This document shows positions 1,856-10,918 of a stretch of DNA of 64,000 nt, piece by piece (within the stretch, counting starts at the first letter, position 1; each line of letters begins with the position of its first letter). Location: NCBI RefSeq assembly GCF_055900595.2, contig NZ_CM148325.1; one strand, given 5' to 3'. The translations under genes were made by a program, and so were the position numbers. Below the pieces are notes generated by a model. That model worked only from the letters and a program-made list of their open reading frames with translations. It did not search any database and was not told the origin of the DNA.

Positions 1856-1875
1856 TCTATATAGTTATTTATTCG

Positions 1876-1908
1876 CAGGAGTACCAGAGCGGTACTCCTG
1901 TTGGTTTT
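1876..1908 (+). terminator. Terminator hairpin after yhiD at the junction with the chu locus
   Basis: Perfect 10-bp stem caggagtacc / ggtactcctg with 5-nt loop followed by TTGGTTTT. Confidence 0.55.
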
Positions 1909-2677
1909 AATGATCGAGGACGATCAGTGGTGAATGGTTGGCAGGATCTTTAAGTACGGTAATATTCGCGCCGTAGAGCATTGTCAGCGCCTGCTGTGTC
2001 AATACGTCCTGCGGTTTACCATTTGCGATAACCTTTCCTTTTTGCATTAATACAACACGGTCTGCATAACGCGCGGCAAGATTTAGATCGTGCAATACGC
2101 AGCAAACATTGAACTGCCGTTCGTGAACTAGCTGGCGTAATAAACGAAACAAGTGCTGCTGATGGTGAATATCCAGCGCCGAAGTTGGTTCATCAAGAAA
2201 TAACCATTTCGGTGAGGGAGTTGGTTCCCAGAGTTGCACCAGCAGGCGCGCTAATTGCACGCGCTGTTGTTCACCACCGGATAATTGCCGATAGTCGCGG
2301 TTTGCTAACGCCTGACAGTCACATAACGCCATTATTTGTGCTGTTTCATTATCCTGATTACCAGTACGATGCGGATGCCGCCCCATCTGGATAACTTCTT
2401 GTACGCTGAATGGAAACGCCATGTGGCTATTTTGACGCATCACGGCCCGGTGTTTCGCCAGTTCAGTAATCGACCATTCATTTAATGGCTTATTAAACAA
2501 CCGACATTCGCCGCTATCAGGTTGAAGATAGCCGGTTAACTGGCGAAGCAGCGTAGATTTTCCCGCACCATTAGGGCCGAGAATGGCAACAATTTCCCCA
2601 CCGGGAAAAGTCAGCGAGACATTATCAGTCAGACGCCGCCCCTGAAGGCTATAAACCAGATTCTGGGCGCTGATCAT
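1907..2677 (-). CDS. chuV: Haemin ABC transporter ATP-binding protein
   Basis: ORF 1907-2830 trimmed to ATG at 2677 ([16 protein letters not shown]...), giving a 4-bp ATGA overlap with the chuU stop; Walker [13 protein letters not shown] signature LSGGEQQR. Confidence 0.9.
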
Positions 2678-3666
2678 GTGATCCTCCGGTTGCGCAGAAT
2701 CAACCACATAAAATAAGGGCCACCAAGCAGGCTGGTTAATAATCCCACGGGCATTTCTGCTGGCTGTACCAGTGTGCGGGCAAGCGTGTCTGCCATCAGC
2801 AATAAACAGGCTCCGGCGAGGGCGGAGCAAGGGATTAGCCAGCGGTGATTTGCCCCGGTAGTCATACGAATCAGATGCGGGATCACCAGGCCAATAAAGC
2901 CGATAATGCCGCTTACCGATACGGCGGCACCAACGAGCAGTGAGCTCACTAACAGTAATTGCTGGCGTTTACGCTTAACGTTCACGCCGAGGTAGTGGGC
3001 TTCTTCATCACCGAGCTGCAGTAAATTCAGCGTTCCGGCGAGACAAGTTGTTGCAATAATGGCCGGTAGGATGAATGAACTGGCAACCAATAACGTCGGC
3101 CATTGCGCCTGTCCAAGATTGCCCATCATCCACAATGTGAGTTGTCGTAGCTGCTGCTCATCGCCGATATAGCTCAGGATGCCGATCGCTGCGCCGCACA
3201 GGGCATTGATGGCGATACCGGCGAGTAATAATTGCATCATGCTGCCATCGCGATGGCGCTGCGTGATGAGAAAAATGATGGTGCAGACCACTAAACTTCC
3301 GGCAATGGCAAACACCATTTGCTCATAGAGCACCAGCACCACTGGGAAGGAAAAGGGCAGCACAATAGCAACGCCAACCATTAATGCAGAACCGCTACTG
3401 ACGCCGAGTAATCCAGGGTCAGCCATTGGGTTGCGAAAAAGCCCCTGCATAATTACCCCGGCGGTTGCCAACGCTGCACCTACCAGCACCGCCAGCAAAA
3501 CCCGTGGTAGACGAATATTGAGCCAGATATCGCGGTATTCCTCATCAAAAAGGGCATCAAAACTGATCTTTAACGCTCCCTGACTGGCACCGAACAGCAC
3601 CAGAGCTAGCAATAATAGTGATAGCCCCATAAAGACCCTGGCGGAAGAGAGTGAATCCTTGAGCAC
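2674..3666 (-). CDS. chuU: Haemin ABC transporter permease (FecCD family)
   Basis: 330 aa polytopic membrane ORF in the haem locus, directly upstream of and overlapping chuV. Confidence 0.9.
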
Positions 3667-9781: not shown

Positions 9782-9829
9782 TCATCTGCCCCGATATTTC
9801 GGGGCATTTATCTGGAAGGAAGAGAGACA

Positions 9830-10858
9830 ATGAACCACTACACACGCTGGCTTGAGTTAAAAGAACAAAATCCCGGAAAGTACGCGCGTGACATCGCAGG
9901 TTTAATGAATATTAGCGAAGCAGAACTGGCATTTGCGCGCGTCACGCACGATGCGTGGCGGATGTGCGGCGATATCCGTGACATTCTGGCGGCGCTCGAA
10001 AGTGTTGGCGAGACCAAATGTATTTGTCGTAATGAATATGCAGTCCATGAGCAAGTTGGTGCGTTCACAAACCAGCATTTAAACGGACATGCCGGATTGA
10101 TCCTCAATCCGCGCGCGCTGGATTTGCGTCTGTTTCTCAATCAATGGGCCAGTGTTTTCCACATCAAAGAAAATACGACTCGTGGCGAACGCCAGAGTAT
10201 TCAGTTCTTTGATCATCAGGGCGATGCATTACTAAAAGTTTATGCCACCGACAATACCGATATGGCGGCATGGAGTGAGCTTCTGGCACGGTTTATCACC
10301 GATGAGAATACGCCGCTTGAGTTAAAAGCCGTTGATGCGCCAGTTGTTCAAAAGCGAGCCGATGCCAGTGTGGTCGAGCAAGAGTGGCGGGCGATGACCG
10401 ACGTTCATCAGTTTTTTACGTTGCTCAAGCGCCACAACCTGACGCGCCAACAGGCGTTCAATCTGGTGGCAGATGATTTGGCCTGCAAAGTATCCAACAG
10501 TGCGTTGGCGCAAATTCTTGAATCTGCACAGCAGGATGGCAATGAAATCATGGTGTTTGTTGGCAACCGTGGCTGCGTACAGATTTTCACTGGCGTGGTA
10601 GAAAAAGTGGTGCCAATGAAAGGTTGGCTGAATATTTTTAACCCGACGTTTACTCTTCATCTATTAGAAGAGAGCATTGCTGAAACCTGGGTAACCCGTA
10701 AACCTGCTAGTGACGGTTATGTGACCAGTCTGGAATTGTTTGCCCATGATGGTACGCAGATAGCGCAACTTTATGGTCAACGTACAGAAGGCGAACAGGA
10801 GCAAGCGCAATGGCGTAAGCAAATTGCTTCGCTGATACCGGAAGGCGTTACTGCATAA
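9830..10858 (+). CDS. chuS: Cytoplasmic haem-degrading / haem-trafficking protein (HemS/PhuS family)
   Basis: 342 aa ORF immediately downstream of chuA; AAGGAAG RBS upstream. Confidence 0.93.
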   Translation: MNHYTRWLELKEQNPGKYARDIAGLMNISEAELAFARVTHDAWRMCGDIRDILAALESVGETKCICRNEYAVHEQVGAFTNQHLNGHAGLILNPRALDLRLFLNQWASVFHIKENTTRGERQSIQFFDHQGDALLKVYATDNTDMAAWSELLARFITDENTPLELKAVDAPVVQKRADASVVEQEWRAMTDVHQFFTLLKRHNLTRQQAFNLVADDLACKVSNSALAQILESAQQDGNEIMVFVGNRGCVQIFTGVVEKVVPMKGWLNIFNPTFTLHLLEESIAETWVTRKPASDGYVTSLELFAHDGTQIAQLYGQRTEGEQEQAQWRKQIASLIPEGVTA

Positions 10859-10918
10859 CGTATAATTAAAGGGAGGTCTGGCTATTTATTGCTGGGCCTC
10901 TTTATATTAATCAATCGA

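Follow-up and report, generated by a model that had tools for sequence, protein, structure and literature searches.

The haem loci closest to the one described here are the chu locus of E. coli O157:H7 EDL933 and uropathogenic E. coli (UPEC) and the shu locus of Shigella dysenteriae, which were reportedly described by Torres and Payne in 1997 and by Wyckoff et al. in 1998. The 1998 study, which PMC5799925 cites, is also said to have placed chu/shu inside the acid fitness island. The island of EDL933 is a 22-kb form that includes chu (PMC9144400, PMC5799925), and the location of chu within it is already known, having been published by Bush in 2018 and in the xenoGI 3 study of 2023 (PMC5799925, PMC10362622). 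Published reconstructions place chu in the island since before the E. albertii split, with loss in the K-12 lineage (PMC5799925, PMC10362622); xenoGI 3 ascribes that loss to a single chu deletion in the lineage to K-12, comprising phylogroups A, B1 and C (PMC10362622).

Here we analyse a haem locus in a stretch of 64,000 nucleotides from contig NZ_CM148325.1 of RefSeq assembly GCF_055900595.2 (hereafter, the window). It spans 9,063 bp (1856–10918), the exact interval between the stop codons of yhiD and dctR. We conclude, with a probability of roughly 0.9, that it is the canonical chu/shu locus, intact, at its standard site, vertically inherited with the island and non-mobile, and that the site exists in two old forms.

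Gene content and boundaries

Coordinates were taken from the open reading frames and from RefSeq, which annotates a chromosome (NZ_CM128605.1, strain E200086) that is 100% identical in sequence. The genes and the evidence for each are as follows.

1208–1855, plus strand: yhiD, MgtC/SapB family, left flank, acid fitness island (RefSeq; NCBIfam NF007431, 401.7 bits, cutoff 214)
1907–2677, minus strand: chuV, haem ABC transporter ATPase, 256 aa (NCBIfam NF010068, 394.6 bits, cutoff 261; RefSeq)
2674–3666, minus strand: chuU, haem ABC transporter permease, 330 aa (RefSeq name ShuU/ChuU; BtuC/FecCD-type permease family match)
3715–4338, minus strand: chuY, anaerobilin reductase, 207 aa (PDB 5guy and 5ffq, full-length, E = 1e-134; RefSeq)
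4338–4832, minus strand: chuX, cytosolic haem carrier, HutX family, 164 aa (TIGR04108, 209.4 bits, cutoff 110)
4845–6182, minus strand: chuW, radical SAM methyltransferase of anaerobic haem degradation, 445 aa (TIGR04107, 571.1 bits, cutoff 400)
6202–7116, minus strand: chuT, periplasmic haem-binding protein, 304 aa (residues 49–304 match the whole ShuT chain, PDB 2r7a, E = 2e-162)
7799–9781, plus strand: chuA, TonB-dependent outer-membrane haem/haemoglobin receptor, 660 aa (TIGR01785, 586 bits, cutoff 317)
9830–10858, plus strand: chuS, cytoplasmic haem-degrading protein, 342 aa (residues 1–342 match ChuS, PDB 1u9t and 4cdp, E = 8e-227)
10919–11449, minus strand: dctR (yhiF), LuxR-type regulator, right flank, acid fitness island (RefSeq)
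11605–12171, minus strand: slp (RefSeq annotation of the identical record)

The minus strand encodes chuV-U-Y-X-W-T and the plus strand chuA-chuS, with chuS directly 3' of chuA; all eight are full length, and no frameshifts or internal stops were found in the chuTWXYUV genes. A first-pass annotation, made from the sequence alone, had reported a complete eight-gene locus in this order and on these strands, and open reading frames, RefSeq annotation and family and structure matches all agree with it. Its likening of the organisation to the haem loci of pathogenic E. coli and Shigella is likewise borne out, as gene order and site are identical. Mature ChuA matches PDB 9dir, 9dhe and ShuA 3fhh across their full length, and the YhiD protein of the window is 100% identical to that of K-12. 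Around the locus, the order slp, dctR, yhiD, hdeBA, hdeD, gadE, mdtEF, gadW, gadX, gadA is conserved, as seen in the window together with the adjoining 15 kb on the left, taken from the identical record.

In K-12 MG1655, yhiD and dctR are adjacent and separated by 41 bp, which agrees with the K-12 gene order given in the first-pass annotation. The junctions of the chu-bearing form carry three features.

1856–1865, no strand: about 9–10 nt past the yhiD stop that are common to chu-bearing and chu-less alleles (junction comparisons; left breakpoint at about 1865/1866)
1875–1901, plus strand: terminator-like hairpin 3' of yhiD, in sequence specific to the chu allele (11-bp stem, then the T-run TTGGTTTTAAT; terminator scan)
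10871–10901, plus strand: chuS terminator hairpin, followed by CTTTATATT, in the 60-bp convergent spacer between chuS and dctR (10859–10918)

The stretch shared after yhiD reads TCTGTATAG in other chu-bearing E. coli, TCTATATAG in the window and TCTGTGTGG in K-12, and megablast alignments of chu-less genomes against the window stop on the left at position 1858. On the right, similarity to K-12 restarts exactly at the dctR stop codon, which sets the breakpoint at 10919. The alignment to K-12 that had been proposed for defining the boundaries thus delimits an allele-specific segment of about 1866–10918. The target duplication that it might have revealed is absent: the segment takes the place of some 32 nt of K-12 spacer sequence and is not a clean insertion. 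No repeat pairing the two junctions and no terminal repeats were found either. The motif TATTTATT, present at both ends of the window, was rejected as a repeat, its right copy lying in the hairpin loop and being missing from 536, L004 and L005. ERIC-like repeats were also discarded as breakpoint markers; they were seen only in a partly deleted locus (L005), and neither in the window nor in the other loci.

The first-pass description had named a terminator hairpin at the yhiD end and a 60-bp convergent junction at the dctR end; the hairpin is real, and the junction, whose length is confirmed, also holds one. The left hairpin (11 pairs plus T-run) folds at -21.5 kcal/mol on the plus strand (z = -4.5); its stem is also stable on the minus strand (-17.9 kcal/mol), but lacks a U-run there. 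It is conserved in 536, HB6, 13P477T, L004 and L007. The right hairpin folds at -20 kcal/mol on the plus strand (z = -4.2) versus -8.7 on the minus strand, where the fold is weaker because several pairs are G-U. Since it is far stronger on the plus strand, we assign it as the terminator of chuS; the stem is conserved in all chu-bearing loci, and the loop is variable.

Regulatory elements and predicted function

Four candidate regulatory elements lie in and between the two divergent operons.

7140–7164, no strand: a pair of overlapping Fur-box matches, immediately 5' of chuT and at the promoter presumed for chuTWXYUV (16/19 and 15/19 to GATAATGATAATCATTATC)
7471–7509, plus strand: promoter-like site for chuA-chuS (TTGATC, 17 nt, AATAAT; promoter scan)
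7770–7801, plus strand: shuA/chuA 5' UTR RNA thermometer over the chuA ribosome-binding site and start codon (Rfam RF02597)
9787–9806, plus strand: GC-rich hairpin in the chuA/chuS gap, with 6 G-C among its 8 pairs and then TTTATCTGGA (terminator scan)

A predicted Fur box at 7491–7509 overlaps the chuA-chuS promoter-like site and, with 17 of 19 positions matching, is the best in the 64-kb window; together with the 16/19 match near chuT (7140–7158) it makes up the two top-scoring predicted sites of the window. With the chuA-chuS promoter at this position, the 5' UTR would be about 290 nt long. Within this leader, the thermometer (shuA_thermo) matches the full model (1–32) with E = 1.5e-7 and 60.1 bits, above the gathering score of 58. 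The hairpin between chuA and chuS may act as an attenuating terminator within the chuAS operon. Further Rfam matches in the region (mir-761, ceN63 and Hammerhead_HH9) fall far below their gathering scores and were dismissed.

Functional roles were assigned from the named protein families, and function and regulation alike are read from sequence only. ChuA would pass haem over the outer membrane, powered by TonB; ChuT would carry it through the periplasm and ChuUV would import it. ChuS probably degrades haem aerobically, and ChuW with ChuX and ChuY would carry out anaerobic ring opening and reduction, with iron freed. As predicted Fur boxes are found on both divergent operons, derepression would be expected under iron limitation; as the known temperature-sensitive hairpin covers the chuA ribosome-binding site, the receptor would be expected at body temperature. 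For this genome, the result matters as annotation: its haem-iron acquisition system is complete, and the sequence predicts that it responds to iron as well as to temperature. In Clermont typing the chuA-positive phylogroups are B2, D, E and F, and a complete chu system is typical of them.

It had also been suggested that the position of the locus couples two host-adaptation traits. Physical linkage to the acid-resistance genes stands, and was already published; coupling beyond linkage does not, as chu has predicted Fur boxes and a thermometer of its own and is bounded on both sides by terminator-like hairpins. The terminal hairpins may serve to separate the transcription of chu from that of the acid-resistance genes, with which their placement is consistent.

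Distribution, mobility and inheritance

Across the 5,426 complete E. coli genomes compared, two clean forms of the site occur, one bearing chu (about 2,235; left junction in 2,235, right junction in 2,232) and one K-12-like, in which the K-12 junction is intact (3,179). Chu-less references accordingly have yhiD directly beside dctR, the arrangement on which the first-pass reading of the site depended. All copies of chu are chromosomal; plasmid carriage was considered and rejected, the sole 'plasmid' matches being two 4.9-Mb chromosomes filed as plasmids. The window itself belongs to a rarely sequenced lineage, 13 of the 5,426 genomes being at least 99% identical to it over 14 kb. Over the same 14 kb, identity to O157-type and B2 loci is 96.4–98%, and the most variable part is the chuT-chuA intergenic region (89% identical to strain 536).

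Absence of chu from K-12 and from the 3,179 genomes with the K-12 junction would be expected if chu were a horizontally acquired island that pathogenic lineages had gained fairly recently, by insertion into an acid fitness island of the K-12 type, and more distant versions of the island are also without chu. The GC content of chu (0.47–0.56) versus its flanks (0.30–0.44) could be read in the same direction. The E. coli genome average is about 0.51, however, and chu is close to it; the part that appears to deviate is the AT-rich flanking island. Signs of mobility were sought and none was found: between yhiD and dctR there is no integrase, transposase or insertion sequence, the annotation holding the eight chu genes only and all open reading frames being accounted for, and ARAGORN detected no tRNA or tmRNA gene in window positions 1–20000. 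Neither repeats nor plasmid copies speak for transfer, and the homology among all chu-bearing junctions suggests a single event long ago. The chu locus is not a mobile element.

Other Escherichia species bear most directly on the age of the locus. In E. albertii, as well as in SCPM-O-B-8794 and E69, two further non-coli Escherichia species, chu occupies the same site. In each, identity of chu to the window tracks that of the flanks and of nearby core genes (in E. albertii, 87–91% for chu genes versus 89–93% for the core), and a chuA-chuS tree places E. albertii outermost, with E. coli innermost. The copies of other species show 87–95% identity, in step with core genes, and no near-identical copies were found in other hosts. 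Co-divergence was measured on single loci from six species representatives. The DctR scan of genome contigs covered six species representatives; those of E. coli, E. marmotae, E. ruysiae and E. fergusonii were not among them.

Because chu shares its site across species and has diverged in step with flanks and core, it is an old resident rather than a recent, pathogen-specific insertion. The co-divergence result largely refutes recent acquisition in pathogenic lineages, which we regard as very improbable. Of the first-pass statement that the locus is 'inserted into' the acid fitness island, the location between yhiD and dctR is correct; the implied polarity and recency are not upheld, given the missing signs of mobility, the shared site and the co-divergence. 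These sequence comparisons suggest that chu was inherited with the island. Vertical inheritance with the island is very probable for this genome, with the proviso that frequent homologous replacement among close relatives within E. coli would look identical. An insertion in deep time may nevertheless have occurred, in view of three more distant island versions without chu and of the GC contrast between chu and its flanks.

Origin of the two forms and comparison with known systems

The residual point of interest is evolutionary, namely how the presence/absence polymorphism arose. According to xenoGI 3, chu came with the original island before the E. albertii split and was removed by a single deletion toward K-12 (phylogroups A, B1 and C; PMC10362622). 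Its presence in E. albertii and other sampled Escherichia lineages agrees with this account, as do the yhiD, dctR and slp genes of chu-less E. coli, which are ordinary E. coli alleles grouping with those of the chu-bearing strain HB6. That lineage is not alone in having the K-12 junction, however. K-12, Escherichia sp. E1V33 and E. whittamii share a homologous spacer of 41–42 bp with the same breakpoints, as does L020. This chu-less junction, common in diverged form to E. coli A/B1, E. whittamii and E1V33, suggests a poor fit to a single deletion. Between E. coli and E. whittamii or E1V33, the spacer is 60–62% identical, a figure that comes mostly from the first ~30 nt of a short 41-bp spacer, versus 81–92% for neighbouring intergenic regions; being more diverged than its neighbours, the absence allele seems to predate the A/B1/C clade. 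Outgroup islands without chu also count against a single deletion, and the simple-deletion signature was not obtained: the K-12 spacer as a chimera of two chu-bearing junctions was rejected, direct-orientation alignments being no better than shuffles save for the shared first ~9 nt. Overall, we consider a single deletion in the K-12 lineage unlikely.

As a separate observation, the reverse complement of the K-12 spacer resembles the chuS terminator of chu-bearing alleles (score 23, 0 of 500 shuffles, about 48 comparisons made). The resemblance was not reproduced with the homologous spacers of E1V33 and E. whittamii.

The slot between dctR and hdeB holds lineage-dependent cargo: nothing, yhiD, chu, chu with yhiD, or urease. 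E. albertii has chu without yhiD, L025 (SRA run SRR26188688) has neither, and L023 and L024 (SRA runs ERR5160870 and SRR31860676) bear genes for urease, a urea transporter and Amt. In E. fergusonii yhiD alone is present, adjoining dctR; this species was rejected as an outgroup for the junction, its copy of the island (DctR 63% identical, spacer of 73 bp) being too diverged to align with either allele.

We give an even chance to an old two-form polymorphism, in which one insertion or one deletion preceded the species split and both alleles then persisted, moved by homologous recombination through the island genes. Each allele has a single homologous junction type across species, the counts in the 5,426 genomes fall into two clean forms, and the spacer of the absence allele is unusually diverged. 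In E1V33, the island groups with E. whittamii and the adjacent core with E. coli, although this signal comes from one 4.2-kb core segment. Set against such a history, yhiD and dctR show no excess divergence between chu-bearing and chu-less E. coli right up to the junction, so that very fine-scale recombination would be needed. The wider proposal, that chu reflects neither a K-12-lineage deletion nor a pathogen insertion but an old cross-species polymorphism at the dctR–hdeB cargo slot, redistributed by recombination, is tentative, and we place it somewhat short of even odds. If true, the published account of a single deletion in the K-12 lineage would be revised, and the acid fitness island would be a modular platform for gut-passage traits.

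Among known systems, the hem/hmu and hut/hug loci of Yersinia, Vibrio and Plesiomonas contain the same modules (TonB-dependent receptor, HemS/ChuS, ABC importer and HutW/HutX-type genes of anaerobic degradation) but differ in gene order and genomic context. The window ChuS scores about 503 bits to Yersinia HemS versus 755 to E. coli ChuS, and these loci count as analogues or remote orthologues rather than as the same locus. By contrast, the surrounding region has the gene order of the E. coli acid fitness island (slp to gadA) in its 22-kb EDL933 form, with no difference of substance. The locus itself agrees with chu of EDL933/UPEC and shu of S. dysenteriae in its eight genes, in their order and strands and in the yhiD–dctR (yhiF) site; the Fur boxes and the shuA/chuA thermometer are present as well, and it differs from those loci only in alleles.

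The haem locus and its boundaries

The interval between the yhiD and dctR stop codons is exactly 1856-10918 (9,063 bp), where the first-pass annotation had placed a complete haem uptake and degradation locus. E. coli E200086, from human stool in Mali, and six more genomes match the first 14 kb of the window at 100% identity; genes were placed using the RefSeq annotation of the E200086 chromosome (NZ_CM128605.1) and an ORF list.

Genes of the haem locus and its flanks
1208-1855, plus strand: yhiD
1907-2677, minus strand: chuV; passes the curated NCBIfam cut-off for haem ABC ATPase
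2674-3666, minus strand: chuU; named from RefSeq, BtuC/FecCD permease family
3715-4338, minus strand: chuY; end-to-end match to structures 5guy/5ffq
4338-4832, minus strand: chuX; passes the curated NCBIfam cut-off for HutX
4845-6182, minus strand: chuW; passes the curated NCBIfam cut-off for ChuW/HutW
6202-7116, minus strand: chuT; end-to-end match to structure 2r7a
7799-9781, plus strand: chuA; passes the NCBIfam cut-off for TonB-dependent haem receptor, end-to-end match to 9dir/3fhh
9830-10858, plus strand: chuS; end-to-end match to structures 1u9t/4cdp
10919-11449, minus strand: dctR
11605-12171, minus strand: slp

The structures matched by ChuS, ChuY, ChuT and ChuA are solved E. coli or Shigella proteins. 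None of the eight Chu proteins contains an internal stop and their families or structures are matched, so the locus is indeed complete. It is a textbook locus at a textbook site, and already known. What the first-pass annotation observed holds in all particulars, and its interpretation is supported in part.

In MG1655, yhiD and dctR are convergent and 41 bp apart. Similarity between the window and K-12 extends ~9 nt beyond the yhiD stop and picks up again precisely at the stop codon of dctR. The stretch after the yhiD stop is TCTGTATAG in other chu-carrying (chu+) E. coli and TCTGTGTGG in K-12, with a single additional G-to-A change in the window. As ~9,053 bp in the window occupy the place of ~32 nt in K-12, the difference is a replacement and not a clean insertion; the site between yhiD and dctR was correctly identified. 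No direct or inverted repeats pair the two chu junctions, no tRNA genes lie within 20 kb, and the annotation contains no integrase, transposase or IS. Plasmid carriage of chu was rejected, the sole 'plasmid' matches being two 4.9-Mb chromosomes filed as plasmids.

The site was surveyed in 5,426 complete E. coli genomes. Of these, 2,234 cover the 14-kb query to 80% or more, 2,235 have the chu+ left junction, 2,232 the right junction and 3,179 an intact K-12-type yhiD-dctR junction. Together the chu+ and K-12-type counts account for nearly every genome, so two clean forms of the site exist, and yhiD adjoins dctR in genomes lacking chu, as the first-pass annotation had supposed.

The window holds further features outside the haem locus. 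Strains without chu, such as GZ04-0083, have acpT directly beside yhhT; in the window a 16-gene aryl-polyene-type cluster (46775-62180) separates the two. Its products include ApeI/ApeP dehydratases, a ketosynthase, a chain-length factor, two ACPs, an AMP-ligase, an MMPL transporter, a LolA-like protein, a GT2 glycosyltransferase and a methyltransferase. The cluster occupies this site in just 577 of the 5,426 genomes; the 'clone D i14' genome has a copy (93% identity) at another chromosomal position. An ArsP-type permease with a divergent ArsR/SmtB regulator (14221-15626) lies between a yhiS-like gene and arsC; K-12 and C41 have neither, whittamii-like loci have both, and O103 RM8385 has the permease. 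The yhiS-like ORF (12417-13640; 407 aa) lies in very AT-rich DNA (GC 0.30-0.35), and its product is ~80% identical to the K-12 and C41 versions, with neighbouring slp at 99-100%. This gene, hypervariable and at the island edge, is disrupted in three strains: split by IS5 in K-12, shortened by truncation in 536 and carrying a frameshift in O103. Beside yhiM, in the yhiJ/yhiL position, are two paralogous DUF4049 genes in tandem (31966-35457).

Regulatory elements and linkage to acid resistance

The 682-bp chuT-chuA intergenic region holds both top-scoring Fur-box sites of the 64-kb window.

Predicted regulatory elements
1875-1901, plus strand: hairpin 3' of yhiD; -21.5 kcal/mol, z = -4.5, U-run on the plus strand alone
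7140-7164: Fur-box site directly upstream of chuT; 16/19
7491-7509: Fur-box site overlapping a promoter-like site (7471-7499); 17/19
~10871-10901, plus strand: hairpin 3' of chuS; -20 kcal/mol, against -8.7 on the minus strand

Reckoned from the promoter-like site, the chuA leader is ~290 nt long, and its final 32 nt (7770-7801) match the Rfam shuA/chuA thermoregulator (60.1 bits; gathering score 58). Each junction carries a hairpin, and both earlier junction descriptions, a terminator hairpin at the yhiD end and a 60-bp convergent junction at the dctR end, are confirmed. The chuS-end hairpin is weaker on the minus strand because several of its pairs are G-U, and its much greater plus-strand stability therefore assigns it to the chuS transcript. 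The 48-bp chuA/chuS gap contains a GC-rich hairpin (9787-9806; 8 pairs, 6 of them G-C) that could reduce chuS expression relative to chuA.

The locus had been thought to couple two host-adaptation traits. The chu and acid-resistance genes are physically linked, as noted previously; Carter et al. 2022 (PMC9144400) describe a 22-kb EDL933-type island with chuAS and chuTWXYU. Shared regulation has no sign in the sequence. The chu genes have a predicted thermometer and predicted Fur-controlled promoters of their own, and each boundary is marked by a hairpin.

Residence of chu in Escherichia

A one-genome-per-species scan with a DctR query yielded six non-coli or atypical Escherichia representatives, whose chu content was determined by tblastn with window proteins. 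The whole locus lies between dctR and yhiD in SCPM-O-B-8794 and E69 (chu 90-93% nucleotide identity to the window in E69). E. albertii has the whole locus and is missing yhiD, so that chuV abuts hdeB; MOD1-EC7003 retains only chuS-chuA; and Escherichia sp. E1V33 and E. whittamii are without chu, yhiD adjoining dctR.

Nucleotide identity to the window follows species, not module: chu and flanks are both 96-99% within E. coli, chuA and chuS of MOD1-EC7003 are 95-96%, similar to their own flanks, and E. albertii has 87-91% in chu, 84-88% in the island flanks and 89-93% in nearby core (gorA-prlC). Branching in the chuA-chuS tree is as expected: E. coli innermost, E. albertii outermost. By these comparisons chu co-diverges with its host species, which would place it at the site since before the E. 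albertii / E. coli split, in agreement with Bush et al., and make it inherited by the window strain. A recent insertion of chu is very unlikely.

MOD1-EC7003 (L005 13640-14330) is a natural partial deletion, with chuT to chuV lost. It carries two mutually inverted ERIC-like repeats: one starts 8 nt past the yhiD stop, the breakpoint at which chu+ and chu- alleles part, and the second is an insertion within the chuA leader.

More distant islands are without chu. In E. fergusonii, yhiD adjoins dctR (DctR 63% identity) and the island has another genomic position, beside uxuAB; in locus L025 (74%), dctR is directly beside hdeB. In two further loci (L023 10001-19318; L024 2596-11913; DctR 52% identity), the genes lying between hdeBA and the dctR homologue are those for a urea transporter, urease (ureDGFECBA) and an ammonium transporter (Amt): where the window has chu, these loci have another acid-survival module. 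The dctR-hdeB interval appears to be a site of variable cargo. The distant islands, together with a GC step (chu 0.47-0.56, flanks 0.30-0.44), suggest an early arrival of chu in an AT-rich island that was already there. The first description of the locus as 'inserted' may thus be right historically, though not as a pathogen-specific acquisition, given the co-divergence.

Age of the chu-less allele

The chu-less junction also occurs outside the K-12 lineage: in E1V33, E. whittamii and another whittamii-like genome (L020), as in K-12 and C41, the breakpoints coincide and the 41-42-bp spacers are homologous. The E. coli spacer is just 60-62% identical to that of E1V33 or E. whittamii, compared with 81-92% for four neighbouring island intergenic regions. 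In chu-less E. coli, yhiD, dctR and slp are ordinary E. coli alleles, grouping with the chu+ strain HB6. In E1V33, compared with window 1208-12171 (island) and 18800-23000 (core), yhiD and dctR-slp cluster tightly with E. whittamii and the adjacent gorA-prlC core with E. coli, which hints that whole island haplotypes may move between lineages, the core signal being one 4.2-kb segment.

The reverse complement of the K-12 spacer (L003 4215-4255) aligns with the chu+ chuS terminator (window 10869-10895; ACGG.GAG.TCTGGCT..GCTG) at a score reached by 0 of 500 shuffles; this may be chance, and the homologous E1V33 and E. whittamii spacers do not show the similarity.

On the simplest reading, to which we give about even odds (roughly 0.5), both alleles are old and each of single origin, and were later shuffled by homologous recombination via conserved island genes. 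A single deletion of chu in the K-12 lineage, the published account (PMC5799925, PMC10362622), seems doubtful against the shared breakpoints and homologous spacer. The sole mildly new point is the evidence for an old absence allele, common to several species: where the published account confines the loss to the K-12 lineage, the present data also place the chu-less junction in E1V33, E. whittamii and L020.
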